A stretch of 64,000 nt of DNA, taken from positions 57,679-121,678 of the forward strand of contig CALWAS010000027.1 in assembly GCA_944375905.1 (NCBI GenBank). The letters run 5' to 3'. Both the position numbers and the translations under genes were made by a program. Source of the DNA: an uncultured Bacilli bacterium. Its GTDB lineage: Bacteria; Bacillota_I; Bacilli_A; RFN20; CAG-826. Below are positions 1 to 57,128 of this stretch, piece by piece; positions within the stretch are counted from its first letter, which is position 1; every line of letters starts with the position of its first letter. The notes beneath the pieces were generated by a model. The model saw only the letters and a program-made list of their open reading frames with translations, made no database searches and had not been told where the DNA came from.

Positions 1-1979
1 TTGATGTACTCCACCGAGATATCCTGGTCTTTGTCGAGCAAAGTGATAATGAGCTGAGAGCAATTTTGCGGCAAAACTTGGCATGCCCGAGTGACGTTGT
101 CCTTATCGAAGTTTGAGAAAGGCGCGTCAAGAACTAGCGGGAATTCTTCAGATTCATCGTCATCGGCATCCCTCAAAACGTCGTTCCGATGGCGGGCCAT
201 ATAAACCAGACTTGAAACGAAAGCAAGGTTTTTCATGCCGCTCTCGGCTTGAGATAAAACTTTCTTGTCTCTCGCCCCCATGGCGTAATAGGGCGTGACA
301 TTGAAATTGGCTTCCCCAATCTTAAAAGTCACAGTCTTATCTCCGCTTAGGTATTGATAGACCTCATTAACGCGTTTTTGCAGATTTTCCACAACCGATT
401 TTCGAGCCGACTCGCGCCTAGATTCTGCAAATTCCCTAACGTCGTCTAGACATTCGAGGCAAGCATTCAAATATTTATTTTTTTCGTTCGAAGCTTCAAA
501 ACTACTGATGTTCTTATTGATGCTGTCCAATTGTTTATCAATATCAGAAATGTCATGCTCAGACAGCCTTTTAATTGACTCGTTCCTGGCACCGATTAGC
601 GTGGAAAGCCGCATAACATCATCATTCCAGACAGACACATCGCCAGTAAAGTTTCTCAGTTTCTGGTCACATTCCTTTATCGTGTCCCTGCACGAATCGA
701 TGTCTTTCTGACATTTCCAAATCGTCCTAAGGTGCCGGCTAACATTGGAGGCACTGTTTTTTGCTACGGGCTCAAAGGCCAATAACTCGTTTTTTAGCCC
801 GCTGAGCAAACCGGAATTGTCATTTGGCGATACATGTTTTTCCAATTCTTTTAGTTTGTTATAGATGTCGCCGCGCCCTGGAATCGGGGTTCCACAAATG
901 CAAACGCCATTATTCAAAATTTCTTCAATGGTAGCTGCCGTCAAATGTTCATAATGAACTTGACCGTCTTTTTTAATCTCTTCAAGTTTGTCAATTATCC
1001 CGGTCGTTCTGACGGCCTTTGACGCGCCCCACAAAGCAAGGAAACCTACGGTTCCTAAATCGCCGCTTAGATCATTTAGCATATATTGCATTTCCGTCTC
1101 AATTGAATCTTGCAATCTTTCTAAGTCGCGTTCGGATTCACGCCTTTGGGTTTGCCATTGTCCGGCTTCCTTATGGGCTTCTATCTGCGCTTTTTTCTCA
1201 TCTCTTTGCGCCTCAAGGAGATCTCGATCCTTTATTGTGTCAGCAAGCTGTTTTTCAAAATCTTGTTTTTTTGATACTAGTTGCTCCCTTTTGGCTTCAA
1301 GCTGTGCTTGATTCTCGAAGGAAGTTGAATCTTTTTGTTTTTCGAAGTCCTTCCAAATGGGCCCGTTTTTCTTGAGGAGATTAATAAGTTGGTCGCGCGC
1401 ATCGAAATTCATGATCCGGCTGACCGATTTTCCCAGCTCTCTTTTATCGGCAACCTCATCGATACGATTAGCCTCGCCGTCGTAAAAGAAATAATCTTTC
1501 AGGTCTTGTGGGAGAATGCTTTCTATTTCGCTTGCAGCTCTGAAATTATCAAGGATGTCAGCTTTTCCGCTCGGGTCTGATTTAAGATTGCGGAAAATGA
1601 TTTGAGTCGGCTTAGGAGAAGTCTTTTCCAGACTAGGTCCCCCGCTGCCACGTGAAACGAAATTGTATTTTTGGCTGGTACTAACAAGGTAATGGTAAGC
1701 ACCATGCTCAAGTTCAATAGTTACCTTAGCCTCGTATTGTTTGCCTAGGGCCGAGATTGGCAATGAATTTAAAACGTCTTTGTTAAAAAGGTCATCGCCT
1801 TTACCGAAAATCTCGCTATCGGGGTAAAGGCACCAGATGATTGACTTGACGAAAGTCGTTTTCCCTACGTGGTTAGAACCATATATTACGGTGACGTTCT
1901 TGCCATCTTTGCTCGAGAGGTCGACAGTTTGATCTTTGAATTGTCGAAAATTACTATAGGAAATTGACAAGATTTTCAT
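1..1979 (-). CDS. DndD/SspC-like SMC-family ATPase, truncated by the window edge (C-terminus lies beyond position 1)
   Basis: Minus-strand ORF starting at the ATG at 1979-1977, with GGAG 9 nt upstream. It stays open to position 1 and is absent from the ORF track only because no stop lies in the window. My by-eye translation gives an N-terminus MKILSISYSNFRQFKDQTVDLSSKDGKNVTVIYGSNHVGKTTFVKSII, which is an RecF/SMC/DndD-type N-terminal Walker A. Long coiled-coil-like K/E/Q-rich middle segments follow. The C-terminus reads FPLVLDAPFSNFD, a Walker B/D-loop. The AT-rich codon usage matches the island. Confidence 0.6.
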   Translation of the reverse strand, partial: MKILSISYSNFRQFKDQTVDLSSKDGKNVTVIYGSNHVGKTTFVKSIIWCLYPDSEIFGKGDDLFNKDVLNSLPISALGKQYEAKVTIELEHGAYHYLVSTSQKYNFVSRGSGGPSLEKTSPKPTQIIFRNLKSDPSGKADILDNFRAASEIESILPQDLKDYFFYDGEANRIDEVADKRELGKSVSRIMNFDARDQLINLLKKNGPIWKDFEKQKDSTSFENQAQLEAKREQLVSKKQDFEKQLADTIKDRDLLEAQRDEKKAQIEAHKEAGQWQTQRRESERDLERLQDSIETEMQYMLNDLSGDLGTVGFLALWGASKAVRTTGIIDKLEEIKKDGQVHYEHLTAATIEEILNNGVCICGTPIPGRGDIYNKLKELEKHVSPNDNSGLLSGLKNELLAFEPVAKNSASNVSRHLRTIWKCQKDIDSCRDTIKECDQKLRNFTGDVSVWNDDVMRLSTLIGARNESIKRLSEHDISDIDKQLDSINKNISSFEASNEKNKYLNACLECLDDVREFAESRRESARKSVVENLQKRVNEVYQYLSGDKTVTFKIGEANFNVTPYYAMGARDKKVLSQAESGMKNLAFVSSLVYMARHRNDVLRDADDDESEEFPLVLDAPFSNFDKDNVTRACQVLPQNCSQLIITLLDKDQDISVEYI

Positions 1980-2126
1980 CTTTAGTGCTCCCCAGAACTC
2001 TCCCGAACGGTTTTTTCTATCATTTTCTCGAAGTCGGAGCTAAGCGATTTAACTTCGCCACGCTGGGCCTGCACTTTCATGATCTTCCGAAGGAAATCCT
2101 GATAGAGTGCAGAAACCATCTCGTTA

Positions 2127-4295
2127 TCAATACCCATTGTCGCCAGAATCCTCCCAAAGCGAGACCTGATCTAAGCGATAAGCTTCCATGATTTGGCTTC
2201 GCAAGGCCTCGCTATCAGATGCATTGTCTGCTTCGTTTGCAAATTCTTCAACCCTTTGCAATTCGCGCTTTGCCAATCCCTGCTCAAGGCGCATTGCATC
2301 ATCATCTAAAAACTTGAGTTGTGAAAGGGGCCGAGTGATTGTCACGAAATCGTAAATTTCTGCAATTCGTTTGCCACTGCGGTAATCTTGCCGAAGCAGC
2401 CTGCCTCTCCTTTGAATGTACTCTTTGGGGTTAGTCGTCGAGGCCAAAATGAACGCCGTCCTGATGCACGGGATATCGATTCCTTCGTCAAGACAGCGAA
2501 TGGCAACGAGAGTGTCGATTGTTCCGTCTTTGAAAAGCGAAATCAACTTCTCCCTTTCTTCGGGATCCTCTTGGGCCGTAAAGCGGAAAGCTTTCATTTT
2601 GTGCACGCCATTTAGCAATTGAAGGACGTCACTTATTTGCTTTTGGGACTCGCCTGGGTCTCGGTCCTTATAAGTAACCGACCCGCAATAAACAAGGTTG
2701 AACTTTGATTTTTCATAATTGGTTATCGCCTCATCAAGCGCGCCTAGCTTGTTTCTTGCCCCCGCTACCACAATTGACCGCTTGATCAAATCACGGCGAA
2801 GCTGATTATCTTCATCTGCAGAAAGATAGGATGCCTCAGCCATTATTTTCTTTGTTAGTTTTAAATACTCATAACGCTCATCATCGTCGAGAGCGACAAG
2901 AATTGGGTAATAGCGATAGTGGCATAGAACGCCATTTTCTATTGCCTCTGGAAGCGTATATCGGATAAGGCACGTGCCAAAGAAATTAAGAATCTTATCC
3001 GTACCGAGAGCATCGTGATGACGAGTTATCGTCGCCGAAAGTCCGAGTCGGTAGCGAAAGTCGATCGAAAGGACCTGGCTAGTTTGAGAGGCTCCCAGAT
3101 TATGGCACTCGTCAGCTAGGAAAATCGTCCGCTTTTTAACCGTCTCCAAAATGCTGAGAACCTCAGGCTTGATGAGACTTGATGAAGTAATGATAGCGGC
3201 TTCGAACTTGCTGTAGCCGCCTTTTACGGCCGCTGCGTATTCTTGAAAGCTAGTGAGCCATGTACGCGAATTTCCGCAGCAAATCAGCGGTTTGATCTTA
3301 TATTTTTCGCAATTTTCATTCCACTGATAAACAAGGTTGATCTGAGGAACAACGATAAGCAGGAAGAACGATTTTGAGCTCTTTTCAGGATCTTCGACTA
3401 GCGAAACGACGGCTCCCAATGATGTAATTGTCTTGCCTGTCCCGGTAGCCATATCGAAATAGCCCCTGTAATCATTTTCCTTCCACGCTTGGATGGCTTT
3501 TCTTTGATAGTCGTAATATTTAATGTTTGCGTTTCCCAGACGCGTGTTTAATAGGCGTTGCTTGAACTTCTGCCTCGCATACTCGCGATCAAGATTTTCA
3601 AGTTCTTCTTTGCTAAAGGAGTCTTTGTAAACAAGGATTTTTTCCTTTACTGCTTCCGGAAATTCGATGATTTGCATCCTACTATCGTGATTTGTCCATT
3701 TTCGATTGAACAATATCTTGTGTTCTTGGCATCTAGTCGATGTGTCAGAACCATTCCAAGAGCAGAAAACTTCGGTCGACTCGCGGTTCAAAAGCAAGCC
3801 ATTTGCAGTCAGATTTCCCGAAGAATGGGCAAGGACAACATTTCCAACGCAGTCGGTAAATATATTGATTTTTTCATGAAGCATTTGTTCAGGGCCACCC
3901 GAATTAAGAACGCCGATCTTGATGTCGAGAATGCCATGGCTCACTAGATAAGACAGAAGAGAGAGATACCCTTTTTCAAATTCGTCGCGAGGATCTTCCC
4001 AGGTTGTAAGAAGACGCTTTTCAATTGTTTCCCTAAGTTCATAGCCCTTCGAAATGGCCTCGGCTTCATCCTCCTTCAAGGCCGTCGAAAGGATGAGGTG
4101 AATACGACCATAGTTGTTCGAAATCATTGGGCAAAGCCCGGCCGCTAGCATTTTGAGACTGACGGCCGAGAAGAATCCGGAGATCCCTTCATAGAGCACC
4201 GACTCTTTAAGACACGGAACATAAAGGTCGTCGATGACATCGTCGACCTGCGTCTCATAATGCATTCTCAACTCAAGATCCGATAATGCCATCAA
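2127..4295 (-). CDS. Superfamily-2 DECH-box helicase (ResIII/SNF2-like) with a roughly 270-aa N-terminal domain; candidate restriction/effector component
   Basis: 722-aa ORF. Helicase motifs are Walker A DMATGTGKT, motif II FLADECHNLG, motif III LSATITR and motif VI QRRGRLLR. The N-terminal region contains HEKINIFTD...SSGNLT, a degenerate HxK(x5)D...SGN arrangement reminiscent of PLD/HKD nuclease motifs but with non-canonical spacing. A 4-bp ATGA overlap joins it to the upstream cysteine desulfurase gene. Confidence 0.75.
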   Translation of the reverse strand: MMALSDLELRMHYETQVDDVIDDLYVPCLKESVLYEGISGFFSAVSLKMLAAGLCPMISNNYGRIHLILSTALKEDEAEAISKGYELRETIEKRLLTTWEDPRDEFEKGYLSLLSYLVSHGILDIKIGVLNSGGPEQMLHEKINIFTDCVGNVVLAHSSGNLTANGLLLNRESTEVFCSWNGSDTSTRCQEHKILFNRKWTNHDSRMQIIEFPEAVKEKILVYKDSFSKEELENLDREYARQKFKQRLLNTRLGNANIKYYDYQRKAIQAWKENDYRGYFDMATGTGKTITSLGAVVSLVEDPEKSSKSFFLLIVVPQINLVYQWNENCEKYKIKPLICCGNSRTWLTSFQEYAAAVKGGYSKFEAAIITSSSLIKPEVLSILETVKKRTIFLADECHNLGASQTSQVLSIDFRYRLGLSATITRHHDALGTDKILNFFGTCLIRYTLPEAIENGVLCHYRYYPILVALDDDERYEYLKLTKKIMAEASYLSADEDNQLRRDLIKRSIVVAGARNKLGALDEAITNYEKSKFNLVYCGSVTYKDRDPGESQKQISDVLQLLNGVHKMKAFRFTAQEDPEEREKLISLFKDGTIDTLVAIRCLDEGIDIPCIRTAFILASTTNPKEYIQRRGRLLRQDYRSGKRIAEIYDFVTITRPLSQLKFLDDDAMRLEQGLAKRELQRVEEFANEADNASDSEALRSQIMEAYRLDQVSLWEDSGDNGY

Positions 4296-5419
4296 AAAGC
4301 CTCCACCGCCTTTAATAATGTAATGATATCTTCTTCATTATTAAACACGCCGAGACTAACGCGAACCGTGCCTCCAAAGACCTTCGACCCAATGAAATCA
4401 TGTATGAGCGGCGCACAATGATAGCCAGTCCGCACCGAAATCCCTTCGTTAGCTAGAATCGTCCCTATATCGTCGGACTTATAGCCATCAATGGCAAAGG
4501 AAACAATGCCGTTGTATTTGCAATTTGGTGCAAAGAATAAATGCGTTTTTGGCATCTTACTTAAGCCGTCAATAAGCATCTTTGTTTCTTTTGAAATGGT
4601 TTCGGCTATCTTTGAACGGTTTTCTCTAACAAATCTTGCGCCAGGTATCAAAGAGGCAATCGCCGAAACATTGCGGCTGCCCGCTTCATATCGATAGGGA
4701 AGATCAGCCGGCATTTCCGGATTCAAAGAATCAGATCCCGTGCCGCCGCATATGACAGGAGGCAAATCGCGGTCTCTCATAACGATGAAGCCCCCGACCC
4801 CAAAGCAGCCATAAAGCGTTTTGTGGCCCGCAAAGACAACATAATCCGCATCAGCTAGCCCGCACAACGGATGGATTCCGTAGGCCTGGGCAGCATCAAG
4901 GACATTCACTGAATCGTATTTTCTTCCCAAAGCGAAAATTGCCTCATGCGATATCCTCGCCCCGGTAACGTTGGAAATAGCGCTGAGGAAGATGGCTAGA
5001 GGGTGATCTAGAACGAACATTCGTTCAATTGTTGGAAGATCGGGTTCCCAGTTTTCATCGAAGGGAAGAACCTTGACCTTTACGCCATCATCCTTCAGCC
5101 TTTCTAAGGGCCGGATGATCGCGTTATGCTCGAAGGGAGAAATATAAATCGTGTCGCCCTCCACCGCACCAAGTCCAAGAATGAGGATATTCAAGGCTTC
5201 GGTCGCCGACGAAGCAAAAACGACATGGGACGGATCGATGCCGTTCTCTAGAGAGGCAACGGCCACTCTGGCCTCTTCCACGATGTCGCTTGCCGCTTGG
5301 CTCTCTTTCGATTCGCCACGGCCAGCGTTGAAAGCCAACGTCCGGTTTATCTTGTCGACAAAGTCATAAACTTCTTTCGGTTTGGGAAAAGTCGTTGCTG
5401 CATTGTCCAAATAGATCAT
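4292..5419 (-). CDS. Cysteine desulfurase, class V aminotransferase family (DndA/SspA/IscS-like)
   Basis: 375 aa. N-terminal MIYLDNAATTFPKP is the NifS/IscS signature start. The PLP-lysine motif is FAGHKTLYG, with a glycine-rich loop containing Cys (VICGGTGSD). Start and stop overlap both neighbours, placing it inside the operon. Confidence 0.8.
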   Translation of the reverse strand: MIYLDNAATTFPKPKEVYDFVDKINRTLAFNAGRGESKESQAASDIVEEARVAVASLENGIDPSHVVFASSATEALNILILGLGAVEGDTIYISPFEHNAIIRPLERLKDDGVKVKVLPFDENWEPDLPTIERMFVLDHPLAIFLSAISNVTGARISHEAIFALGRKYDSVNVLDAAQAYGIHPLCGLADADYVVFAGHKTLYGCFGVGGFIVMRDRDLPPVICGGTGSDSLNPEMPADLPYRYEAGSRNVSAIASLIPGARFVRENRSKIAETISKETKMLIDGLSKMPKTHLFFAPNCKYNGIVSFAIDGYKSDDIGTILANEGISVRTGYHCAPLIHDFIGSKVFGGTVRVSLGVFNNEEDIITLLKAVEAF

Positions 5420-8400
5420 TTATCGCTCTCCTTCAAAAGATTGCCAAAGACGTAGAGCAAATCGTTTTTGGAAAGGGCTTGGTTGTATTGCGATAGGATT
5501 TCCCGGATCTGGTTCTCGACAATGTTGGATACTGGCGATAGCTTGGATTCATCGACTACCGATAGCATTTCGCTCGCCGCTCCGAAGGCAGATTTAGCTG
5601 TCTTAAATTTGTCTGAGACAAGATAAGCTAGGAACTGCTCGATCGTTTTGAAGAACATTTCCCGGTTTTTGCCGTTCCAATCAGAGAAATGCAAATCAAT
5701 GGCAGCAATAGAAAGCTCATCAATGAGGGTAGGATCAAAATGCGACTTAGATTCATAAATGGCCTTGGCGATTTGGTTGTACCGGAAATCCCCGACGCCT
5801 TCCTCAACGCTGTACCCGGCTTTCCTTTCGATGCCTTGGAGAATCGAGAGCAACGATCCTTTTTTGCCGGCGATGCCAGGCATCGAAAGAAGCCTTGTTG
5901 AAGTTGATTTCGCCAATTTTGTCTCCATCTCTTCGAAAGACTTCTTTTCTTTCTCTAGGGCGGAGAGGAGCTTATCGAGCCCAATGACCTTGAAATTTCG
6001 CGGCAGGAATTCAAAGAAGAAGTCATTGGGCGAAAGATCATACTTGGTGAGCTCGGCCAAAAAGGTTTCTTTCTCCTTGGAAATGACCATCGGAAATCCA
6101 GCGGCCGTCGCAGTTCGAACAACTTGAGGGAGATTCCGAAACCAGTTCTTAAGACAGTCGAGGGCCTTTTTCCCAGCGCTCCGACCGTCGGCCTCGGCTT
6201 TCCCGCCAAACAATGAAATGACACCGGTAATGAAATCGCTCCGCTCTTTGGCACCACGATCGATCTTAATCTTCCATTCATCAATTTTTGGAGAGGAGAT
6301 GGCCTTATTGATGCCAGCTGAAGAAAATTCCTCCTCTTTCTTCCCGAAATAGAGGCCGAAAGCCTTGTCATCGGCAACTCCAAGTCTTAGGACAGCTAGG
6401 GTAATGAAGAGCGGGATGACGCCCTGTCTTATGCCGTAAGGAGGCTCAATGAGCTTTTGAAGGATCGGCGACACGGAAACCATAATCGCATCCTTACCGT
6501 TCAGCATCCCTTCGACTATTTTGGTCGCGGCATTGATGCCATAAGGATCGCCTTCGGCTTTTGCTTTTTCAAAGAAAATACGATAAATGGTGTTTTCCGG
6601 GCTCGATTCGCTCGTTTCCTCAATGACAGCCCTCTGATTGTCCCCTTTCGTAAGGAGGATGTCGATCAGGCGATCGCGCGCTTTCGCGTAGTTTTTCGTC
6701 GGGTGATCGCGGTTAAGCAACTCGTTATTCACGATCGGGGTATCGGAATAAACCTTCTCGAAAACGCTGCTAAGGATTTCGCTCGCGGTTTTTCCACTGA
6801 AGTTGACTGAAGAAAAGAAGCACGATCCACTATCCTTGTACGCTTTGCCGATGACGGCTCTTATATCGGACTGCAAACGGCTTTTCATCACGTGAAGAGC
6901 TGCCTTGTCATTGTTGCTGAGGCCAGCATCGGTCTCCATTCGCTCATAAGCCTTCCATAAGGAAAGGGCGTGCTCCATGGCATCAAGAGGGAGAGAATTT
7001 GGAACTTGGACGATTATCTTTGGGTCATTGATTTCCTTGACCTTTTTCATGATTGAGTCAGGGCTTCCGCTTGCATCGAAGATCCTTACGATTATTCCGT
7101 CGTATGGCCACCCATAGAGATCCTTGAAAGAAGATAGAGCAAGGAAGGATTCAGAATCGATGTAAGTGATTCTTGCATACCTTGTCATTCGCTTTTGAAC
7201 GTTGTAAGCAAAAGAAGCGACATAGTCGTCCTTGAATATTTCCTTAAGGGCATCGACGGGAGAATAACGACGTAATTCCTTCCTGATTATTTTCTCGGCT
7301 CGGGCATTTATTTCTTTGCTTCCGACGAAAGCGAAATCAAGCCCCCCATCGAATCTGTTAACGCGTACGGCGCCTTCCTTCTCGAGCAAACTTATTTTGT
7401 CGAGTACCTCCTCAAGGGGCAAATCGAGAGCGAGAGCCAAGGTCTGGGCGTTTGCCTTAAGCTTTGTTGAAGGTTGGAGCATGAGGCAGACAGCCATGCC
7501 CTTAACAATCTTCTTGATCTCCGCATCATCATATTTCGAGCAAGTAGCATCACAGCTATAGGCTAGGTTTTTCAAACGATGGTCTGGGCTATCAAAAATC
7601 TGTTTTTCGAAGTAATCCCAAACCGAGTCGATGCCGATAAGATGCCCATTGTTATCCTGTTCGACGAGGGAACGTAGGCCATTGGGATCACTCCCATAAA
7701 TAAAAGTGAACAAGGTGCGCTCGTTCTGCGCAACCTCTTCGTTGATTCTAAGCAAGGCAAAAGTGCTCAATGGGTTTAGTGGGAAGACTAGAGAAGAAAG
7801 CTTTTCTGCATCGATGCCATCAGCAGCTTTGCTAAAGACGCCGAGACGATCGATTTGCCCGAAGTAGTCTTTATTTTTTTCAATATAATCTGCAAAGAAG
7901 GCATTGAAAGCCGAGAGCTTCTCAATGGCAAAGTTGATAAGCTCGGCGCTCTCTTTGAGCGCACGATCAAACTGGCGGAATACAAAGCGCCCTTCGACGG
8001 CCTGAAGAATTTCATTGACGCGATCGTCTTTGGAATAAAGGGAGGTCTTTTTGTGGGCTATGCAGCAAAAATGTATCGAGTAGTTACTATCGCTTCGATT
8101 GGAAAGCTCGGCAAAGTCCTGGATGAAACGAAGCTCGTCGCCGTGGTTTTCAGGGCTTGATTCAAGAAACTTAGAAAATTCGTCAAAGACAACAAAAAGC
8201 CCATCGAACCCGCGCTTTTTAAGTGAAGAGGCCACCGCTTTGTACGTACCGATGGGGTCAGAAGCCAGAATCGGGTTGAACTCACCGCCAGATGTAATGC
8301 AACGATAAATATCACCAAATCGTTTAAAGGCTTGCTCCGAATAAGAACGGAGATCATTGATAAGACGATCGACCTCGCCTTTTTTCAGGTTGCACTGGTC

Positions 8401-8913
8401 AAACTTAGTAGATGAAATGATCCTGTCTTTCTTCCAAGACGAAAGAAGGCGGGCGGCTTCCTCGTAAGCGGTATATGGAACGAGGTCTTCACAATGAGCC
8501 AGCATGAGCCCCGAGCGCAGCCCATTCATAAAGGCTTGCTTCATGCTGCCAAAAGAAGGGCTAATTACGATTGGTATGTAACTTTTGTGATTTTTGATCT
8601 TAGACACAAGATCTGGATCAACCACTTCGACTCTAGAGATGAACTTGTCTAGAGATTTCGCGCTCGCCGCGCCGAACAGAATTTGAAGAATAGCCAGCAG
8701 AAGAAACGATTTTCCTTTGCCATACGCCCCAATAAGCTGGGTCGATTGATTCCGGTTATAGGCCACGTCATCTAGGTAGTCCCCGAGAATCTCGCAAACA
8801 TCAGAAGTTGGGAGATATTCCGTTAGTTTATCAGCCGAGTCTAGGTCAAACTCGATGTTTATTGACGGCTCAAATCGCTCATTCACTCGAATAAGATCAG
8901 TTAGCCTAGTCAT
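5416..8913 (-). CDS. Large P-loop NTPase, BrxC/PglY-like in size and architecture (hypothesis)
   Basis: 1165 aa. N-terminal Walker A GAYGKGKSFLL and Walker B-like LFVVFDEF, followed by roughly 900 aa with no other recognisable motifs. The size (about 1200 aa) and the N-terminal ATPase followed by a long helical body resemble BREX BrxC/PglY-type ATPases. Its start overlaps the stop of the 296-aa ORF by 8 bp, and its stop overlaps the start of the cysteine desulfurase by 4 bp. Confidence 0.5.
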   Translation of the reverse strand: MTRLTDLIRVNERFEPSINIEFDLDSADKLTEYLPTSDVCEILGDYLDDVAYNRNQSTQLIGAYGKGKSFLLLAILQILFGAASAKSLDKFISRVEVVDPDLVSKIKNHKSYIPIVISPSFGSMKQAFMNGLRSGLMLAHCEDLVPYTAYEEAARLLSSWKKDRIISSTKFDQCNLKKGEVDRLINDLRSYSEQAFKRFGDIYRCITSGGEFNPILASDPIGTYKAVASSLKKRGFDGLFVVFDEFSKFLESSPENHGDELRFIQDFAELSNRSDSNYSIHFCCIAHKKTSLYSKDDRVNEILQAVEGRFVFRQFDRALKESAELINFAIEKLSAFNAFFADYIEKNKDYFGQIDRLGVFSKAADGIDAEKLSSLVFPLNPLSTFALLRINEEVAQNERTLFTFIYGSDPNGLRSLVEQDNNGHLIGIDSVWDYFEKQIFDSPDHRLKNLAYSCDATCSKYDDAEIKKIVKGMAVCLMLQPSTKLKANAQTLALALDLPLEEVLDKISLLEKEGAVRVNRFDGGLDFAFVGSKEINARAEKIIRKELRRYSPVDALKEIFKDDYVASFAYNVQKRMTRYARITYIDSESFLALSSFKDLYGWPYDGIIVRIFDASGSPDSIMKKVKEINDPKIIVQVPNSLPLDAMEHALSLWKAYERMETDAGLSNNDKAALHVMKSRLQSDIRAVIGKAYKDSGSCFFSSVNFSGKTASEILSSVFEKVYSDTPIVNNELLNRDHPTKNYAKARDRLIDILLTKGDNQRAVIEETSESSPENTIYRIFFEKAKAEGDPYGINAATKIVEGMLNGKDAIMVSVSPILQKLIEPPYGIRQGVIPLFITLAVLRLGVADDKAFGLYFGKKEEEFSSAGINKAISSPKIDEWKIKIDRGAKERSDFITGVISLFGGKAEADGRSAGKKALDCLKNWFRNLPQVVRTATAAGFPMVISKEKETFLAELTKYDLSPNDFFFEFLPRNFKVIGLDKLLSALEKEKKSFEEMETKLAKSTSTRLLSMPGIAGKKGSLLSILQGIERKAGYSVEEGVGDFRYNQIAKAIYESKSHFDPTLIDELSIAAIDLHFSDWNGKNREMFFKTIEQFLAYLVSDKFKTAKSAFGAASEMLSVVDESKLSPVSNIVENQIREILSQYNQALSKNDLLYVFGNLLKESDK

Positions 8914-9796
8914 GGATGCGAACCTCCATCTTGTGGACGATATTCCTTAGATCGATGCTTTCAGCCGGCATTTCTACAACATTGAGTCCTGCCGTCCTAA
9001 CAACATTGATCAAATTCATCGACTTAAGACGATCGAGGACGGTCATAAATTCATCACGATTCAAATTGAATAGGCGGCCGGGTCCGTTTTTTGCCTCTAG
9101 AAGAGAATCAATCGTATCCTCGTGCGACTTAGATGCTTTCAAAAGGAGGTAATAAAAAACGTATGGCTCAATCTTGTCGAGATCGATCGGCTTTTTTTGA
9201 TAAAGCTGCGTTTCCTTTCTTTCTAGAAGCGAAAAGGCGGAAAGAGGACAATTAAGGTTGTTTTCGGGATCATCGATGGGATCCGATACATAGGTTCTAA
9301 CCAAAACGCTAAGATCGTCGCTCACGATCGATTCCTGTGGGGATTCCCCAAAGTGCTCAGCGCACCACTCCCCAAACGAACGAATGAACGTCTCTTTGCT
9401 AAATGATTCATGGGGCAGCATTTCATTGAAGAGGAAATAGAAAAGAGGCGCCTTGGATTCGGAGGCCACAATGTTCGCATGGATCAGCTGCCAGCTGCCG
9501 GCTTTGAGAAGATAAGGATCAGCTTCGAAAATGATGCTTGCTTCCTCTGAAAGTTCAGGCTTTAGCTTTTTGTTGACGTCCAAAAGACCGGCACATTCCA
9601 TCCAATAGCGAAGAGCCGATACCATGTTCGACCCTATTCCGAGGCAGACGGGGCCATCGCTTTTCGAAAATACATTGAAGCGCCCATTGGCGTTAATAAG
9701 CTCACGATAGGCCTTGCTTAACCAACCTTCGCGAATGGAAAAACTCTGGCTAAGCTTGAATTGGGGCTTGGTCATCCGTGATTCATTGTTTTCCAT
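8906..9796 (-). CDS. Hypothetical protein (296 aa), translationally coupled between the DndC-like and BrxC-like genes
   Basis: ORF with AT-rich island codon usage. It overlaps the DndC-like stop by 14 bp and the downstream start by 8 bp. I recognise no catalytic motif; it lacks the DGQHR/ParB-like signature of DndB/SspB. Confidence 0.55.
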   Translation of the reverse strand: MENNESRMTKPQFKLSQSFSIREGWLSKAYRELINANGRFNVFSKSDGPVCLGIGSNMVSALRYWMECAGLLDVNKKLKPELSEEASIIFEADPYLLKAGSWQLIHANIVASESKAPLFYFLFNEMLPHESFSKETFIRSFGEWCAEHFGESPQESIVSDDLSVLVRTYVSDPIDDPENNLNCPLSAFSLLERKETQLYQKKPIDLDKIEPYVFYYLLLKASKSHEDTIDSLLEAKNGPGRLFNLNRDEFMTVLDRLKSMNLINVVRTAGLNVVEMPAESIDLRNIVHKMEVRIHD

Positions 9797-11537
9797 TTTT
9801 GATCCTCAGAACTTTCTTCATGTAGCAACCGCTGTCGAAGTGTGAAACGCACTCAAGACAATGCCGGCACTTGTCGGGATTAATCGTATATATGACAGAA
9901 TCGAGAGAAGCATCGCCTTTCTTTGAATTCGAGACATGCAGCGCTCCAAAACGGCATACAGACTCGCAAGCGCCACAAGCAAGGCAGGTTTGGAACTTGG
10001 TAATCTGTGAGTTAATCAAAAGCTCTCCAAGATGACGGTTTTTGAATCGGCCTTTATTACTTAAAATCGCAACCCTGAGAGTCGTGCTTCCTTTAATTCC
10101 CCTAAGCTGAAGAATCGGCTCTCTTGTCACTGAATCAAGGACATATGCCTCCCCCAGTTTCGGATTCCCCATCGAGAAATCGAGTATCCCAAATGGTTTG
10201 AAAAGGGTATAAAGCATATCGTCAATCGGCCGTGACAACTCAAAATTTATGGCATTCTCGTCAAAAGCACACGGCTTAAACGTAACGATGGTGTTTTTGC
10301 CTAAAGCAAGCCCGTTTCCGCCTTGTCTTGCCTTCCACTTGCCAGTATCGACGTATTCTTTCCAATCAGGTTTTCCAACGCTCTTGGCAAAATCATAAAG
10401 AAGATTTTGAAAATCCCCATAGAGTTCCGGCATATATATCGACGACAGAAAGCCCGACCAAATGCTGTTATTTGGACAACACCAACATCCGACACGAGAA
10501 AAGCCCTGACGGTAGGCGTGGTTGAAATCGAGTTTGTTCGAAATGATGTAAAGCCAGTCGTCAAAGGAAGTCCAATCGATGATTGGGGAGCAGACAACCT
10601 GTTTTGTTATCTTCGAATCAGCACTGTCGCGGGAATAATTGGATCGCGAAACCGATTCCATCCTGCGTACGCCGAAAAATGTCAAAATCCGCGGCGTCTT
10701 GGCAAAAAGAGACTCAATAGTCTTGGTAATGGCACCTGTCTTGAAAACGGTACAGCACCACCGCATGACCCTTGATGGCGGGCCTATCTTGCGACACAGA
10801 TCATTGAAATCCTGATCTTTGTTTTTTGCCTCAATTAGCGGCGTCCCCGGATAACGCTTCCTAAAGCGGGCGACGTATTCATGAGTCGTTGGGTATTCAA
10901 GCGTCGTATCTCCATAAATATGAACGATGGTTTCGCTTCCTAAGGACTTCATGGCAAGATGGCTCACTACCGTCGAATCCTTGCCTCCGGAGAAACTCAC
11001 GAAAGAATTCGCAGCCGTATAGCCCCTTGCCCGCTCTAATATGTAAGCAGTTGCTTCATCTGTAATTTCGGCCAGTCTTGAACGATTCACGCGGCAAAAT
11101 GCCGCGATTTCCTCTGAATCAAGGTACCCATCGACATATGGCTGATTAGCAGATGCAAATTCGGCAAGTTTTTTTCGTATCTCGCTCGGATCTCTCTTTA
11201 TCATCTGACTTTGGGAAAACTTAACGATCTGCCCGTCTATGACGTAAGATCCCGACCCGATAGCCCACACAGAGTGCCCTGCATATTTCATGGGAACATC
11301 GTTTAGGACCTCGATCAATAAACGTTCTTCGGGAAAAACGGGTCGAAGGTCGGTCCCTATCCGATGGCATTTTCCATGGCATTCCGGACAAGTATCGTAA
11401 AAGGACGGCGCGTTGCATTTAGAACACCAAAAAATCGAAGCCGAAAAGACCCTTGCCCGGCTTCCGCAAACAGGGCAGGTACTAGTTTCGCACAGCGTTC
11501 CCTGACACTCTTTTCGTTCGCATTTATATATAATCAT
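9783..11537 (-). CDS. DndC/SspD-like PAPS-reductase-family PP-loop ATP pyrophosphatase with N-terminal Zn-ribbons and a C-terminal 2x[4Fe-4S] ferredoxin-like domain
   Basis: 584 aa. The PP-loop SFSGGKDST is followed by MRWCCTVFK, the DndC/CysH-like cysteine region. The N-terminus has four CxxC pairs (CERKECQGTLCETSTCPVCGS...CSKCNAP...CPECHGKC). The C-terminus reads CLACGACESVCRFGAL...CRHCLECVSHFDSGC, the classic CxxCxxCxxxC + CxxCxxC ferredoxin pattern. It is the first gene after a roughly 325-bp AT-rich promoter-like gap. Confidence 0.8.
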   Translation of the reverse strand: MIIYKCERKECQGTLCETSTCPVCGSRARVFSASIFWCSKCNAPSFYDTCPECHGKCHRIGTDLRPVFPEERLLIEVLNDVPMKYAGHSVWAIGSGSYVIDGQIVKFSQSQMIKRDPSEIRKKLAEFASANQPYVDGYLDSEEIAAFCRVNRSRLAEITDEATAYILERARGYTAANSFVSFSGGKDSTVVSHLAMKSLGSETIVHIYGDTTLEYPTTHEYVARFRKRYPGTPLIEAKNKDQDFNDLCRKIGPPSRVMRWCCTVFKTGAITKTIESLFAKTPRILTFFGVRRMESVSRSNYSRDSADSKITKQVVCSPIIDWTSFDDWLYIISNKLDFNHAYRQGFSRVGCWCCPNNSIWSGFLSSIYMPELYGDFQNLLYDFAKSVGKPDWKEYVDTGKWKARQGGNGLALGKNTIVTFKPCAFDENAINFELSRPIDDMLYTLFKPFGILDFSMGNPKLGEAYVLDSVTREPILQLRGIKGSTTLRVAILSNKGRFKNRHLGELLINSQITKFQTCLACGACESVCRFGALHVSNSKKGDASLDSVIYTINPDKCRHCLECVSHFDSGCYMKKVLRIKNGKQ

Positions 11538-11862
11538 GTGCGTTCAGAAAGATTGTACCATGTACTTATTGGGACAGTCTTATCGATGCTCCACAAAAGA
11601 GCCAAACACAATCTGTAGGAACCTTTTATTTCTGACATCATTTTGTCTAAATTTCTTGATATTTCGTCAGTCAACGAAGTAATTTACTCGATTATGTCTT
11701 AATCATATAAAATATGTATTCGTAAGTTAAAAAACTGATTGTATGTTCCATTTTGCTTGCCAGGAATAAAAGCCATGCGCGATAACTTAATAAAGAAGGT
11801 TGCCGTTTTTCTTGCTGAACAACAGTTTCGCTGACACTTCTATAGCTGGACGTTGTGAAAAG

Positions 11863-13284
11863 TCAGGCATCGTTGCCATTTAGCGAAAGGTAGAATCTCG
11901 AATCCGAATAAATCGCTCCCGTATCCCTTATCAAAAAGGTCTTTGACAAATATGAACGGACTATTCCAACCAGAAGGTATTTGTTCCATTCATAGTCCAA
12001 TTGGGGCAGATTCCAAAAACTGAAATATTCGTCAACTCTGATTTCTTTTTTCTCTCCAATCTCCGATTTTAAACCTCTGGTTATGGATTCTATCGTTTCT
12101 TCGCTTAACTGAAATTTGCTTTTAGAAACGATGCGATTGGAATCCACTTCCACATAATCGGGCGCAGTAATGTCCAAAAGCCATTTCCTGCTGTCTATAC
12201 CGTTGATATGGATCCTTTGGCAAAATTTATTTATCTCATCGAAAGAAATGATTTCTTTGCTATAAACGAATTCTATGATCAAATCGTCTCCGGTAAGTTT
12301 GATCCGCTTAGTTGCTGAAACATATGGCTCCTTAAAGAAATATTTTCTTCCATAGTAACAAGCGGCAAGAAAATACAAGCCCTGCTCATTTGCAAAAGAT
12401 CCTAATTCTTTCAAGAAAGTCGGATGGGCGATAGCAAAAGACGAATACAACTTACCTCTTGCAACAACTCCCACTGGGCTGCTTGAAATGATTTTCCGTA
12501 ACGTAGAGCCGATGCAAATAATAGCTGCTTCGCTGATTTTTTCATCGGCAAGGCGACGATAAGAAGAACGATTGCGCAAAAAGTCCTCATAGTAAGAAAG
12601 ATATCTCTCAACCAGTTCGATCTTCTTTTGATCGAAGAATTCACCCTTTGCTTTGGCTATTGTTTTGTCCCTTAAGGAACAAAAATTGTTGAGAGAGTCC
12701 AGAAGGAAGAAGTCGGTAAATGACTTGCTGACCTTTCGAAGCAATCCGTTGATTATCTGGAAACTGTCAATGACAGCCTTAACTGATGCCGGGGAAAACC
12801 GCCTGATGGTCAATGCTTGGACAAATTCATCCTTTGTTTCCTTGGCGAAATGAGCCTTAGCTTCCTCGGGTTCCGCGACCGGATGGCAATGATAAAGGAA
12901 AAAGCACTCCTTTAAATCGACGCCATAGGCTTCCAAAAGACATTGAATGTTCATCATCGAATGGCTAGACGTGTGGTTGGTGTCGAGATAAAGGTCGCGA
13001 AACGGAGAATAGTTGGTCCTTCGAGTCCGGGAGAAAACTACGCACTTGCTCCACTTGTAACGGATGGAGAGCAGTTCTTCATCGCTTTTTGGATTGCGGC
13101 GGTCTAATTCGGAAAGAATACCAAGTGTCATTCGGTTCCAGCTTCCGGCACAGACCAAAATATCACGGTAGCTAAACAAATAAGGGGTTGTGTTTTCCAA
13201 ACACGGCAGCGGATTCGTCATGTCGAATTCGTAGTAGCGCCTACCATCGATATATCGAATTTTATATTTCTCTTCTATTCCCAC
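11863..13284 (-). CDS. Hypothetical protein (473 aa), first gene of the AT-rich island inside the boundary
   Basis: Long ORF with island-like AT-rich codon usage and no recognisable motifs. It has the same orientation as the modification operon and lies directly inside the GC-content transition. Confidence 0.5.
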   Translation of the reverse strand: MGIEEKYKIRYIDGRRYYEFDMTNPLPCLENTTPYLFSYRDILVCAGSWNRMTLGILSELDRRNPKSDEELLSIRYKWSKCVVFSRTRRTNYSPFRDLYLDTNHTSSHSMMNIQCLLEAYGVDLKECFFLYHCHPVAEPEEAKAHFAKETKDEFVQALTIRRFSPASVKAVIDSFQIINGLLRKVSKSFTDFFLLDSLNNFCSLRDKTIAKAKGEFFDQKKIELVERYLSYYEDFLRNRSSYRRLADEKISEAAIICIGSTLRKIISSSPVGVVARGKLYSSFAIAHPTFLKELGSFANEQGLYFLAACYYGRKYFFKEPYVSATKRIKLTGDDLIIEFVYSKEIISFDEINKFCQRIHINGIDSRKWLLDITAPDYVEVDSNRIVSKSKFQLSEETIESITRGLKSEIGEKKEIRVDEYFSFWNLPQLDYEWNKYLLVGIVRSYLSKTFLIRDTGAIYSDSRFYLSLNGNDA

Positions 13285-13411
13285 GTTTTGTAAATGATAA
13301 CGCAGATCCCGACCGACGAATATTTATTTACAAATTGAACAAACTGAGTCCCCTTCTCCTTCACTTTGCCATAAAAAACTGTCTCTAAAATTGTCTTATG
13401 CAATATGGAAA

Positions 13412-13452
13412 CCGCAGCAAAAAGCCCGGCTTCGATAAGAAACCGGGCTCTC
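13412..13452. terminator. Bidirectional rho-independent terminator at the island/host junction
   Basis: AAAAAGCCCGGCTTCGATAAGAAACCGGGCTCTCTTTTT has a GCCCGG/CCGGGC stem flanked by an A-run and a T-run. On the minus strand it lies just downstream of the stop of the 770-aa lipoprotein gene. Confidence 0.5.
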
Positions 13453-13466
13453 TTTTTCGTTTTACC

Positions 13467-15779
13467 CTATTCGACGATGTCGAAGTAGATGCCGCCGACG
13501 AGAATCCAGGCCAGGCGCATCGTTACATGTCCCTTCGTGTAGATCTGGGCCCCGGGGTAAGGCGGATCCGGGTCGAGGACATAGCCGTTTTCGACCAGTA
13601 GCTCCTTGTAGGCCGCGTACCACTCGTCGTCGCAGCCCGACTTGGTGCTATTGGAGATATCGACCGTGTAGAGATAGACCGAATCCCACTTGCGGTAGGT
13701 CTCGGGGTGATAGAGATAAGGAATCGTCGCGGCGTCTTCTTCCCCATAGAAGGCCACGAAATCGGCATAGACCTCAGGGCTATCCTCTTCCCAAGTGGTC
13801 GGTTCGACCCAGGCTGGAAGGGACGATAGCTCGTCTACGAGGCCATCGGGAAGAACTACATCTTCATCGTAAAGGAACGTGCAGACGTCATGTCCCTCCA
13901 TCGTGAGGCCGTCGTCGGTATCGTAACTCATCTCGGCGATCCTTCCTTCCGCGTCGAGGCGGAGGCGGAGGGTCGAGATGACGATGTCGCTCCCGTTCCG
14001 CCCGAGGATCATCCGGTCCTTGACGCCGGTCAGGACGAAGTCGCGGATGACGTAGGAGCCGTCATCGTCCTTCTCGAAGAGAAGGGGCGAGACGTCGAAG
14101 CGGAAATGGGAGGAAAGCGCCTCGTCGAGAGCAACGTCGACCCGCGAGGCATCTTCCCCGTTCGGCTTGATGAAGCGCTGGCTTTTGCCGCCGTCGAGGT
14201 AATAGCCCTCGTAATCGGTCGAGATCGTTCCCGAGAAACGCTGGGAGATGTCCTCGTAGACGAGGTGTTCCCGGTCGTAATAGATGTTGAGCTGGTTTTC
14301 CTCCGTCCTTTCCTCGTGGGAAAGCATGGCGAAGGCGTGGCTTCCGTCGAAATAGGCGAAGGCCCTTTCGAGGGCTTCTTGGTCCTCACTATCGAGGCCG
14401 GTCGCCGGCACGACGTCGACGAACTCGCCTTCGGGGTCGAGCTCGACGGTGATGACGACCGAGTAATGGAGGAGACCATCCACCATCTCGGGATAGGTGA
14501 CGACGAGATGGTCGAAGAGCCCGTTTTCGTCGAGATAGACATAGACGCTCTCCGGGCTCGAGAGGGCACCCATGAAGGAAATCTCGCCCATCTCGTCCCC
14601 GCGCGTGCCAAGGTAGCGGTAGCCATCGCCTTCCTTGCGGAAGGCCGTTAGGTCGGAAGCGAGGACCGCGTAAGGCGTCGGGTAGTCGTCTTCCCATTCG
14701 TAGTACTCGCCAAGCCGCTCGGAAGAGACGGCGTTATCAGCATTGAGTCCGCGGACGGCCGTCCAGCCATCGTCGTTGAAATAGACGGCCTCTTCCTTTT
14801 CCCCGCCGGCCTCCTCTTGATAGAGGCGGACCTCGTCGATGAGGCGGTCGGACCTCGTCTTGGCAACGAAGGTCTTATTGCCGCTCCCGGTCTCCACCAT
14901 TTCCATCGTCGAGACGAGGGAGACGCATTTCGTCTCGCTCGGCATAAGGTCGGAGATGGAAGTCTCGGAAAGGGGCTCGCCGCTCGGGGTGAGGAAGGAA
15001 GCGAGATAGTCGTCGGCTTCCTTGATCGAGGCGCTTCCGACGTCGCGGAATACCCCTTGGCAGTCTTTGACCTCGGCGTATTCCTGCTTCAATGGGTCGT
15101 AGATCTGAAGCGAGAAGGCGAGATCGCCGCCGTCGAGGTAGAAGCGGGCTTGCCCGAAGGTCTTGTCGATGGCGTCCTGCCCATAGCCAAGTCCCGTCGC
15201 GAGGGCATAGATGATCTTCTCGTTTCTAGTGTAGGCGTAATCGCCTTCCTCGAAGAAGTTCTGGACCTGCAGGGTGTTTTCGAGCGGCGAGAAGAAGTCG
15301 AAATCGGAAAGATCCGTCTTCAAGACACCGTTCGCCACATAGGGATAGCCGAGGCGGAAGGCCCCGGTCGAATCGAAATAGAAGAGGTAGACGATTTTGT
15401 CGGCAATCGCCTTGTCGTAGCTATCGATCAGTGCATAGCCGGTGTTCGAAAGGGATTGATAGAAATAGCTGCCCCGATGGACATCCCGGGCAAAGACGCC
15501 TTCGTAGGTCGACTCGATGGCGTAGTCGTCGTTTTCGGCGACGTCGAGGAGGAGCTCGAAGGCTTCCTTCGCCGTCACCGGCTCCTCGACTTCGACGGAC
15601 GAGGAGGAACCGGAACTAGAGGAGGCTGACGATGACGACGAGGCTGAAGATGAGGAAACGGACTCTGATCCCGAAGTGGAGCCAGCGCCCGAACTAGAGC
15701 TGGACGACGAAAGCCCCGTCTCCCCGCAGGAAGCGAGGAGAAGGGACAGCAGAATGGCAGGAAAGCACTTAAATCTCAT
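13467..15779 (-). CDS. Lipoprotein with a serine-rich linker (770 aa), function unknown
   Basis: N-terminal MRFKCFPAILLSLLLASCGE has the lipobox LLASC, followed by a roughly 50-residue run of S/G/A. High-GC codon usage. The long antisense ORFs on the plus strand are GC artefacts. Confidence 0.7.
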   Translation of the reverse strand: MRFKCFPAILLSLLLASCGETGLSSSSSSSGAGSTSGSESVSSSSASSSSSASSSSGSSSSVEVEEPVTAKEAFELLLDVAENDDYAIESTYEGVFARDVHRGSYFYQSLSNTGYALIDSYDKAIADKIVYLFYFDSTGAFRLGYPYVANGVLKTDLSDFDFFSPLENTLQVQNFFEEGDYAYTRNEKIIYALATGLGYGQDAIDKTFGQARFYLDGGDLAFSLQIYDPLKQEYAEVKDCQGVFRDVGSASIKEADDYLASFLTPSGEPLSETSISDLMPSETKCVSLVSTMEMVETGSGNKTFVAKTRSDRLIDEVRLYQEEAGGEKEEAVYFNDDGWTAVRGLNADNAVSSERLGEYYEWEDDYPTPYAVLASDLTAFRKEGDGYRYLGTRGDEMGEISFMGALSSPESVYVYLDENGLFDHLVVTYPEMVDGLLHYSVVITVELDPEGEFVDVVPATGLDSEDQEALERAFAYFDGSHAFAMLSHEERTEENQLNIYYDREHLVYEDISQRFSGTISTDYEGYYLDGGKSQRFIKPNGEDASRVDVALDEALSSHFRFDVSPLLFEKDDDGSYVIRDFVLTGVKDRMILGRNGSDIVISTLRLRLDAEGRIAEMSYDTDDGLTMEGHDVCTFLYDEDVVLPDGLVDELSSLPAWVEPTTWEEDSPEVYADFVAFYGEEDAATIPYLYHPETYRKWDSVYLYTVDISNSTKSGCDDEWYAAYKELLVENGYVLDPDPPYPGAQIYTKGHVTMRLAWILVGGIYFDIVE

Positions 15780-18311: not shown

Positions 18312-18392
18312 CGCAATGGATTTTCGCGCCGATTGGTAAGAAAGGGAACAAGAAAAGGCGCCTTTCGCTTAGATAAGGCGCCTTGGAACCGT

Positions 18393-21044: not shown

Positions 21045-21073
21045 GGAGAGATTGTAACGAGCGAAAAGATGGC

Positions 21074-44301: not shown

Positions 44302-44303
44302 GG

Positions 44304-48583: not shown

Positions 48584-48713
48584 ATGATATGGCCTTTCGA
48601 GGCAGCTTCCCATGGATGAGCGAAAAAAGGGACAAAATCGTTTTTGACAAATCCGGCATGGGAAAAACGAAAAGCCGGTCTTCAACGTAGATAGCCGGCT
48701 TTTGCAGGAGATT

Positions 48714-57127: not shown

Positions 57128-57128
57128 G

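Follow-up and report, generated by a model that had tools for sequence, protein, structure and literature searches.

We analysed a 1165-aa P-loop ATPase encoded at 5416..8913 (minus strand) of a 64,000-nucleotide stretch of DNA (the window) from an uncultured Bacilli bacterium, contig CALWAS010000027.1. The protein is very probably SspC, the ORC/Cdc6-clade AAA+ ATPase (DUF6079 / BrxC-PglY-like) of an Ssp-type DNA phosphorothioation (PT) module, as judged from its open reading frame (ORF), PADLOC profiles, an AlphaFold2 model and Foldseek. The value of the finding lies mainly in correct annotation, as pipelines call the protein "hypothetical" or "ATP-binding".

Family, motifs and fold of the window ATPase

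A PADLOC search returned 16 matches to the window protein, all of which were to SspC (12 models) or to BrxC (four profiles). The SspC model PDLC02779 matched at 3.4e-72 in two stretches that together are near full-length, the best stretch covering residues 222–1001. BrxC/PglY was the second family, with a best match of 5.4e-22, and the SspC profiles are thus ahead of the BrxC profiles by 50 orders of magnitude. Judged by these profiles, the window protein is the SspC of an SspABCD-type system. The matches to general family databases were far poorer. The Pfam family BrxC_BrxD (PF10923) scored 18.4 bits, short of its 22.2 cutoff, and spans only residues 43–77, the P-loop region, and PF19557 (DUF6079 / BrxC-PglY_N) gave no match to the window protein at E ≤ 1. 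PF19557.5 matches only 8 of 42 clade members, and nearly all other full-length homologs listed (27–51% identity) carry precomputed PF19557.7 matches. NCBIfam holds no model for the window SspC or for the neighbouring SspB. The original prediction, which had been made on the letters and ORFs of the window, described roughly 900 aa beyond the N-terminal motifs as unannotatable. This description holds for Pfam and NCBIfam only, because these gave nothing above threshold; the PADLOC SspC profiles cover residues 222–1001 and beyond, and the structural model resolves domains.

The sspC ORF has an ATG start, is the third gene of a packed minus-strand operon and overlaps the upstream gene sspB by 8 nt, with a GGAGG located 8 nt before the ATG. 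Its translation holds LIGAYGKGKSFLL, which is the Walker A motif (GAYGKGKS, residues 62–69; 8707..8730, minus strand), and LFVVFDEFSKF, which is Walker B (FVVFDE, residues 240–245; 8179..8196, minus strand). The ORF and its translation agree with what had been predicted, namely a 1165-aa ORF at 5416–8913 with GAYGKGKS and VVFDEF. In 42 homologs the residues G62, Y64, G65, K66, G67, K68 and S69 are invariant, leaving A63 as the sole non-invariant position of Walker A, and F243, D244, E245 and F246 are likewise invariant. A search of a 90%-clustered database yielded 1078 SspC homologs at E ≤ 1e-5 with full-length alignments that start from residue 1–3; nearly all of the homologs listed are full length (~1140–1170 aa) and annotated PF19557. 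An exhaustive profile search recovered 4848 cluster representatives at E ≤ 1e-3, of which 1941 reach E ≤ 1e-30. The 1165-aa ORF is clearly not a chance ORF. A decayed locus was also considered and was rejected because every ORF and enzyme motif is intact, the P-loop motifs of SspC included.

The AlphaFold2 model, built from the 42-sequence alignment (homologs 26–51% identical), has a mean pLDDT of 85.1 and is confident. When the model was compared with the PDB by Foldseek, the top six matches were all BrxC of the Acinetobacter type-1 BREX (bacteriophage exclusion) system (9zdx, 9zll, 9zn5), with E values of 1.8e-9 to 1.9e-7, target TM scores of 0.40–0.59 and 588–769 aligned columns; the 769-column match is to a 754-residue BrxC-BrxB hybrid model. 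The next matches were Aeropyrum ORC2 (1w5t, E = 1.5e-3, probability 1.00) and yeast ORC-Cdc6 (9bcx_B, 3.4e-3), the ORC/Cdc6 range being E = 1.5e-3 to 1e-2, and TnsC (8fcu_Q) followed at E = 0.18 with probability 0.95. The TM scores against ORC/Cdc6 are modest because the query is 1165 aa long. Among the comparisons with the PDB, only the fold search linked the window protein to BrxC; the sequence methods failed, and phmmer with the full protein, phmmer with only the first 500 residues at E ≤ 10 and the 42-sequence profile returned no BrxC and nothing meaningful. The kinship with BrxC/PglY that had been proposed at the outset is borne out by the four PADLOC BrxC profiles and the six best fold matches, and the BrxC resemblance of the SspC family is real and already published.

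These searches also bear on other large P-loop families, namely KAP NTPases, DndD-type ABC ATPases and DndH/DptH, and leave a negligible probability that the window protein belongs to one of them. Such an identity could draw on the generic P-loop and on the finding that Pfam offers only weak, sub-threshold matches to assorted AAA families. Against it, PADLOC gave no DndD, DndH or DptH match, Pfam gave no KAP match at E ≤ 1, the fold matches are to BrxC and ORC/Cdc6 rather than to ABC or HerA/FtsK proteins, and the DndD-like protein of the locus is a separate gene, pbeC. KAP NTPase, DndD and DndH/DptH, of which KAP and DndH/DptH had been named as candidates in the original prediction, were rejected on PADLOC, Pfam and Foldseek, and none of the searches placed the protein in an NTPase family unrelated to BREX or Dnd.

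Domain boundaries of SspC were read from the DSSP string of the model and should be taken as approximate. Residues 1–440 (7594..8913, minus strand) appear to consist of a conserved N-terminal segment and an AAA+ domain that harbors a helical insert (~149–232) and a lid bundle. Residues 441–1165 (5416..7593, minus strand) would contain a winged helix-turn-helix (wHTH; ~489–527), an alpha+beta domain with two long helices (~532–701), a second wHTH-like unit (~811–886) and a helical C-terminus (888–1165). As modelled, this layout parallels the published BrxC domain order (PMC12839542; PMC13326643). Block conservation is 0.56–0.67 over residues 1–440, except for block 151–200 within the helical insert (0.46), and 0.35–0.50 in the C-terminal half; the N-terminal 450 residues are the best conserved and the C-terminal 500 the most variable. 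Residues 441–1165 are presumed to form the fast-evolving half that binds DNA and partner proteins. Besides K68, D244 and E245, the residues R309 and QNERT 396–400, including R399, are invariant in the 42 homologs, and R317 is at least 90% conserved. Judged by spacing, the conserved residues would be the counterparts of K78, E269, K326/R330 and R430 of BrxC (PMC13326643), and by this analogy R309 and R317 are candidate Arg finger(s) and R399 is a candidate sensor 2 residue.

The operon and its proposed function

Three sulfur-modification partners surround sspC. The gene sspD (9783..11537, minus strand) encodes a 584-aa PAPS (3'-phosphoadenosine 5'-phosphosulfate)-reductase-type PP-loop enzyme whose C-terminus bears a 4Fe-4S region (Pfam PAPS_reduct 1.5e-33, plus Fer4); the motifs of the enzyme are SGGKDS at 183–188 and CLACGACESVC at 518–528. 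It is BrxP-like, with PADLOC matches to BrxP of 4.4e-77 (positions 23–518) and to SspD of 2.1e-12. Next in order, sspB (8906..9796, minus strand) encodes a 296-aa DUF4007 protein (Pfam DUF4007 3.6e-61; PADLOC SspB 1.1e-42) that in PADLOC also matches the C-terminal third of BrxP (528–769). DUF4007 SspB proteins have been described in the literature as triple-wHTH DNA-binding proteins and nickases. On the other side of sspC lies sspA (4292..5419, minus strand), encoding a 375-aa class-V pyridoxal phosphate-dependent cysteine desulfurase (Pfam Aminotran_5 4.6e-66; PADLOC SspA 1.1e-33, DndA 4.5e-33) with the motif GYHC at 332–335; there is a 4-nt overlap between its start and the stop of sspC. 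The PAPS-reductase and cysteine desulfurase neighbours that the original prediction had noted are thus both present. The seven genes from sspD to pbeC follow one another with spacings of −14, −8, −4, −4, −11 and +2 nt. Scanning for promoters and terminators upstream of sspD gave nothing better than shuffled sequence did, and for this reason we claim no sspD promoter.

Downstream of sspA the operon continues into a Pbe module. In published Pbe systems, PbeA is an HKD nuclease fused to a superfamily 2 (SF2) helicase, PbeB a small protein, PbeC an ABC ATPase of the CxC type and PbeD a cognate of DndE (PMC10853773). The first gene, pbeA (2127..4295, minus strand), encodes a 722-aa HKD (phospholipase D (PLD)-type) nuclease fused to an SF2 helicase (PADLOC PbeA 1e-203; ResIII and Helicase_C domains) with the motifs HEKINIFTD at 140–148, GTGKT at 285–289 and DECH at 395–398. 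It scores 468 bits, under the 600-bit cutoff, with TIGR04095 dnd_restrict_1 ("DNA phosphorothioation system restriction enzyme"), and PbeA is presumed to be the restriction effector. The pbeB position is occupied by a fast-evolving 51-aa ORF (1982..2137, minus strand), conserved in position as a 49–53-aa ORF in the metagenome contig L001 and in the related loci L003 and L006, with 19–34% identity across cassettes; it has no profile matches, and its likeness to the "small protein" of CxC systems is by position and size only (PMC10853773). The CxC-type ABC ATPase gene pbeC (1..1979, minus strand) runs off the left edge as ORF 1979..3, with 659 of its 683 aa inside the window, and carries GSNHVGKT at 34–41, CIC at 360–362 (the CxC zinc hook) and LVLDAP at 615–620. 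PADLOC scores it as PbeC at 1.5e-73 and as DndD at 3.8e-19; the "DndD-like ATPase" noted earlier is hence present in the operon and is better described as PbeC.

Contig L001 is 100% identical to window 1–13048 and extends the operon 4.6 kb past the window, adding the rest of PbeC (683 aa at full length), a 180-aa gene at the PbeD position (L001 13124–13666) and a 433-aa ninth gene. The PbeD-position gene is conserved in at least 37 loci and has no Pfam or PADLOC match. The ninth gene encodes 395–433 aa and follows the PbeD-position gene at L001 13674–14975 (433 aa), L003 19563–20807 and L006 19495–20682, and also in L008 and L023; it is fast evolving (21–29% identity) and has no Pfam or PADLOC match.

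Taken as an Ssp-type PT module, the operon would work as follows. SspC would bind ATP via K68 and D244/E245 and, like BrxC, would form ATP-bridged oligomers on double-stranded DNA. With the DUF4007 protein SspB as its partner, it would load on DNA, select the target motif and open or nick it. SspA would take sulfur from cysteine as a persulfide, and the PP-loop/Fe-S enzyme SspD would activate the backbone and insert the sulfur, so that host DNA would bear a PT mark. Finally, the Pbe module (PbeA, PbeB, PbeC and the PbeD-position gene just outside the window) would attack unmarked invading DNA. The order of events, the sequence specificity of SspB/SspC and the reading of the PT mark by Pbe are parts of this scheme that we infer. 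Published work provides its elements. The activity of SspC/DndD-type P-loop ATPases is essential for PT synthesis, and in type-4 BREX loss of brxC abolishes PT, while brxP, brxC and the desulfurase suffice for it (PMC12914056). The single-stranded nature of Ssp modification has been ascribed to nicking by SspB (PMC9646914). BrxC shows ATP-dependent binding to double-stranded DNA through its wHTH and alpha+beta domains and forms ATP-bridged back-to-face dimers that can be extended to heptameric rings on DNA (PMC13326643). SspC itself has been described as an ORC/Cdc6 AAA+ protein that replaces DndD and is predicted to encircle and travel along DNA with SspB (PMC10853773).

Several points weigh against this assignment and scheme. 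Neither Pfam nor NCBIfam gives an above-threshold match to the window protein. The PAPS-reductase partner is far closer to BrxP than to the canonical short SspD profile, and the gene order D-B-C-A differs from that implied by the name sspABCD; because of these two features the clade is not a textbook Ssp locus. The Arg finger and sensor 2 assignments are drawn from spacing and invariance rather than from residue-level superposition, and PT in this organism is a prediction from its genes. Further, brxC and sspC from other species did not complement a brxC mutant (PMC12914056), which means that the function is partner-specific and not simply transferable. The link between PT and Pbe is drawn from adjacency and by analogy with archaeal Dnd-Pbe work, in which the mechanism itself is disputed (PMC10853773).

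A rival reading is that the protein is BrxC/PglY proper, the ATPase of a type-4 BREX system that is possibly reduced. In support of this, the fold matches BrxC, the best-scoring family for the PAPS-reductase partner is BrxP (4.4e-77), to whose C-terminal part the DUF4007 protein is also matched, and the order D then B is that of a split BrxP; moreover, type-4 BrxC and SspC, and BrxP and SspD plus SspB, are homologous (PMC12839542). Yet PglZ is kept in all 457 type-4 BREX taxa and BrxL in 96% of them (PMC12839542), and neither is present at the window locus. Neither PglZ/BrxZ nor BrxL was found among the large ORFs of the window or among the genes past the window in L001, PglX was not found in scans of the window, and no PglZ or BrxL was found in representatives of the recurring flanking clusters of 80 related loci, a scan of representatives and not of every flanking ORF. 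The co-occurrence with PglZ that the original prediction had proposed to check was hence detected at none of these levels. In addition, SspC profiles match the protein at 3e-72 and BrxC profiles at 5e-22. We regard the BREX identity as highly improbable, and a true BREX locus was rejected, as PglZ, the defining BREX component, was not detected. The echo of BREX noted earlier is found at the level of the fold and is lost at the level of the locus, which shows neither PglZ nor BrxL.

Alternatively, the module could write a mark other than PT, such as another sulfur- or nucleotide-derived mark or one on RNA, and the ATPase would then be a loader of a generic kind. Enzymes of the PP-loop PAPS-reductase type also take part in RNA thiolation, and no PT could be detected in some gut isolates that carry sspBCD (PMC12914056); the clade is also divergent, with an ATPase that has no family-level match in Pfam or NCBIfam. 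On the other hand, a desulfurase, a PP-loop/Fe-S enzyme, a DUF4007 protein and a DUF6079-type ATPase are exactly the set that makes PT in Ssp and type-4 BREX, and the effectors found downstream in this window and in related loci (the HKD nuclease-helicase and SspFGH) are directed at DNA. We consider a mark other than PT to be quite improbable.

Related loci, exchange of effectors and co-diversification

A survey of one genome per species gave 80 related loci (L008–L087), which were searched with hidden Markov models built from the cassette. The window's own genome was not recovered, probably because the Walker A pattern of the survey required GPYGKGK and the window has GAYGKGK. The 80 loci are mostly from metagenome-assembled genomes (MAGs) of gut and rumen Bacillota, and also include Methanobrevibacter, Spirochaetaceae, Prevotellaceae and Muribaculaceae. 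The order sspD-sspB-sspC-sspA is kept in all 80 wherever the contig is long enough, and the nine-gene order is kept in further related loci with SspC identities of 50% (L003–L005) and 35% (L006/L007).

What follows sspDBCA differs among the loci. Pbe is the commonest module, standing directly after sspDBCA in 48 of the 74 classifiable loci (44 with both PbeA and PbeC). Fifteen loci carry an SspFGH-like trio (in L043, SspF 1.9e-35, SspG 4.6e-28 and DndH/SspH 7e-80), 10 carry an SF2 helicase with an MzaB-like ATPase and a PLD/DrmC-like nuclease, one carries a DUF262-type protein and six are too short to classify. An Ssp-type writer is thus regularly wired to a Pbe/CxC effector, and one writer is exchanged among three effector modules. 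No description of an Ssp-Pbe pairing was found in the searchable literature, and one could stand in other papers or in supplementary data; CxC/Pbe systems have been described with Dnd genes, with methylases or alone. A 2021 survey found SspE or SspFGH beside only ~15% of 2,678 sspBCD operons (PMC8092258), and the Ssp-Pbe configuration, if true, would explain part of the ~85% that have neither.

Several further features of these loci were recorded. The third trio lies at L035 10301–14728 and at 13880–18312 of L088 (Treponema saccharophilum plasmid pTS1). Its SF2 helicase has no PbeA N-terminal nuclease, RefSeq labels every pTS1 gene generically, and no name was found for the trio as an Ssp partner. 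A DUF262-type protein of ~700–740 aa (HEC-05/PDC-M55C-like) stands beside or inside the cassette in ~10 loci (including L015 5229–7310, L027 14569–16728, L064 13603–15783 and L067 14671–16890), and one flanking cluster of the 80 loci (~735 aa) is DUF262-type. This recurring protein has the domain class of the SspE N-terminus but no match to the PADLOC SspE models. The same cassette is found in gut and rumen samples in L016 (a Methanobrevibacter sp. MAG), L034 (Spirochaetaceae), and L031 and L039 (Bacteroidales); its presence in an archaeal methanogen and in other phyla implies wide horizontal transfer, provided that the binning is correct. Three "Bacteriophage sp." contigs from human faeces (H16–H18, including MT835506.1 31553–35128) contain SspC homologs, one of them full length, with 25% identity; these may be prophage-borne defence genes or misassigned contigs.

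Rates of divergence were compared in 37 non-redundant loci with all seven proteins (L001, L003, L006, L008 ... L086), using the Spearman rho of pairwise identities. The median pairwise identities are 0.54 for SspD, 0.48 for SspA, 0.43 for PbeA, 0.35 for SspB, 0.30 for SspC, 0.25 for PbeC and 0.24 for PbeD. The strongest correlations are within three pairs, SspB-SspC (rho 0.90), PbeA-PbeC (0.86) and SspD-SspA (0.81). Across the modules, SspC correlates with PbeA at 0.63 and with PbeC at 0.55, whereas PbeA correlates with SspD at 0.22 and with SspA at 0.29. The difference between rho(SspC,PbeA) and rho(SspD,PbeA) is 0.41, with a bootstrap 95% confidence interval of 0.24–0.53 that excludes zero, and the gap persists when pairs with SspD identity of at least 70% are left out (0.60 versus 0.11). 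In our reading of these identities, SspB and SspC would be a fast-evolving recognition pair, and the effector would follow that pair rather than the chemistry. The tracking of SspC/SspB by Pbe points to a specificity determinant held in common; similar co-variation could arise from clade structure or horizontal transfer. If upheld, co-evolution together with effector exchange would provide a testable handle on PT motif choice and effector matching.

Because Pbe diversifies in step with SspC and SspB but not with the enzymes of sulfur chemistry, we tentatively suggest that sspD-sspB-sspC-sspA-pbeA-pbeB-pbeC-pbeD, with or without the ninth gene, may be an undescribed PT defence configuration in which SspC, beyond being a writer subunit, forms with SspB a specificity hub that Pbe must match or touch. 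A related proposal, which we hold to be unlikely, is that modification and restriction have a common hub in SspC, as they do in BrxC of type-1 BREX; besides helping to write PT, SspC would scan DNA and license or recruit Pbe at unmodified sites, as the sensor core of the original prediction would. The stronger co-diversification of Pbe with SspC/SspB than with the sulfur enzymes (0.63/0.55 versus 0.22/0.29), the BrxC-like fold of SspC and the arrangement of all genes in one overlapping operon are consistent with such a role. For BrxC, mutants have been described that uncouple methylation from restriction, and control over the two processes has been proposed (PMC13326643). Against this, sspDBCA precedes three unrelated effector modules, each of which has its own ATPase and DNA-binding parts, and locus L023 pairs a distant SspC (26% identical to that of the window) with a window-like Pbe (PbeA 48%), a mismatch which indicates that the modules can reassort. 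In Proteobacteria SspFGH works with heterologous SspBCD (PMC8092258), from which it follows that SspFGH recognises the mark itself rather than the writer. A target motif in common, or clade structure, could likewise give rise to the co-variation with no physical coupling.

The original prediction had cast the window ATPase as a possible sensor that discriminates modified from unmodified DNA. This is not the known role of the family, as the SspC/BrxC ATPase is needed to write PT (PMC12914056) and as sspDBCA combines with three effector modules that each bring ATPases and DNA-binding parts of their own. The idea survives in a weaker form, in that SspC and SspB look like a site-recognition pair with which Pbe co-diversifies.

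Genomic surroundings and known systems

The cassette lies on a low-GC island (1..13450) that has ~35–48% GC in composition profiles, compared with 56–62% in the nearby chromosome. The right border of the island is at ~13,400–13,550 and its left end is beyond the window; no tRNA or tmRNA that could serve as its integration site was found within the window. Directly upstream of sspD, the island carries a 473-aa ORF (11863–13284, minus strand) that has no family match; it shows weak similarity (22.5% identity, E = 1e-10) to a 329-aa gene at the same position in L004 and is absent from L006. The L004 cassette, with 50% SspC identity, adjoins YgjP-like and SpoU methylase genes (L004 2711–4446), as are found at window 17577–21667. 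No match between the surroundings of L004 and those of the window was obtained with blastn, and the two may share an insertion neighbourhood in related hosts.

Outside the island, the window consists of ordinary chromosomal DNA with genes for glycogen phosphorylase, branching enzyme, ABC transporters and BspA-type leucine-rich repeat (LRR) proteins. The glycogen phosphorylase is 72–77% identical to proteins of uncultured "Bacilli bacterium" MAGs, the same taxonomy as in the closest SspC loci. Other defence-related genes are also encoded in the window. Wadjet genes at 60214–63961 (minus strand) encode JetC (1072 aa, PADLOC 1.3e-225) and JetB (181 aa, 4.5e-33), and JetA would lie past the right edge. 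A 953-aa protein at 56857–59718 (plus strand) has a mad3/mad8-like ATPase C-terminus (5.8e-59), and a block at 43408–48685 (minus strand) encodes an AriA/PtuA-like ATPase (297 aa), an SbcC/LmuB-like protein (1046 aa) and a 414-aa nuclease-like protein; the 953-aa protein and this block may be further defence genes or simply SbcCD. Two BspA-type LRR surface proteins are encoded at 18393–21188 (minus strand, LRR_5 1.6e-51) and at 31100–33334 (plus strand, LRR_5 5.7e-61). The latter also contains Listeria-Bacteroides repeats and a collagen-like stretch, and both are typical of gut anaerobes.

Four groups of known systems resemble the window cassette or its ATPase. The ORC/Cdc6 and TnsC DNA loaders provide the next-best fold, after BrxC, for the N-terminal ATPase and wHTH of SspC, which agrees with the published clade assignment. 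SspC differs from these loaders in having a large helical insert in the ATPase domain and ~650 further residues, and it has no replication context.

BrxC/PglY of BREX, as in the type-4 system of Bacteroides salyersiae and the type-1 system of Acinetobacter (9zdx, 9zll, 9zn5), shares the fold of the window SspC and resembles it in domain order. Like BrxC, the window SspC keeps Walker A, Walker B and candidate Arg finger and sensor residues, and type-4 BrxC likewise makes PT with a PAPS reductase-DUF4007 protein and a desulfurase. In contrast to BREX loci, PglZ, BrxL, BrxB and PglX were not detected in the window, and BrxP is split into SspD and SspB; neither phmmer nor a PDB profile search detects any sequence similarity between the window SspC and type-1 BrxC.

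The SspABCD-SspE and SspABCD-SspFGH systems (Vibrio cyclitrophicus FF75, E. coli 3234/A and V. anguillarum FF-93) have an ATPase of the same profile family and similar size and the same partners, and SspFGH-like genes also follow relatives in the clade of the window SspC. Unlike the proteobacterial systems, the window locus has the order D-B-C-A, a long (584 aa), BrxP-like SspD with a 4Fe-4S tail, a Pbe effector instead of SspE or SspFGH, and a host from an uncultured gut Bacilli lineage.

Finally, the haloarchaeal DndCDEA-PbeABCD systems (CxC ABC ATPase-DndE systems; PMC6459918, PMC10853773) have an effector half of the same kind, adjoining PT-writing genes. Their writer is of the Dnd type, with the ABC ATPase DndD and DndE, whereas the writer in the window is of the Ssp type, with the AAA+ protein SspC and SspB, and the closest window-like loci contain an extra ninth gene after the PbeD-position gene.

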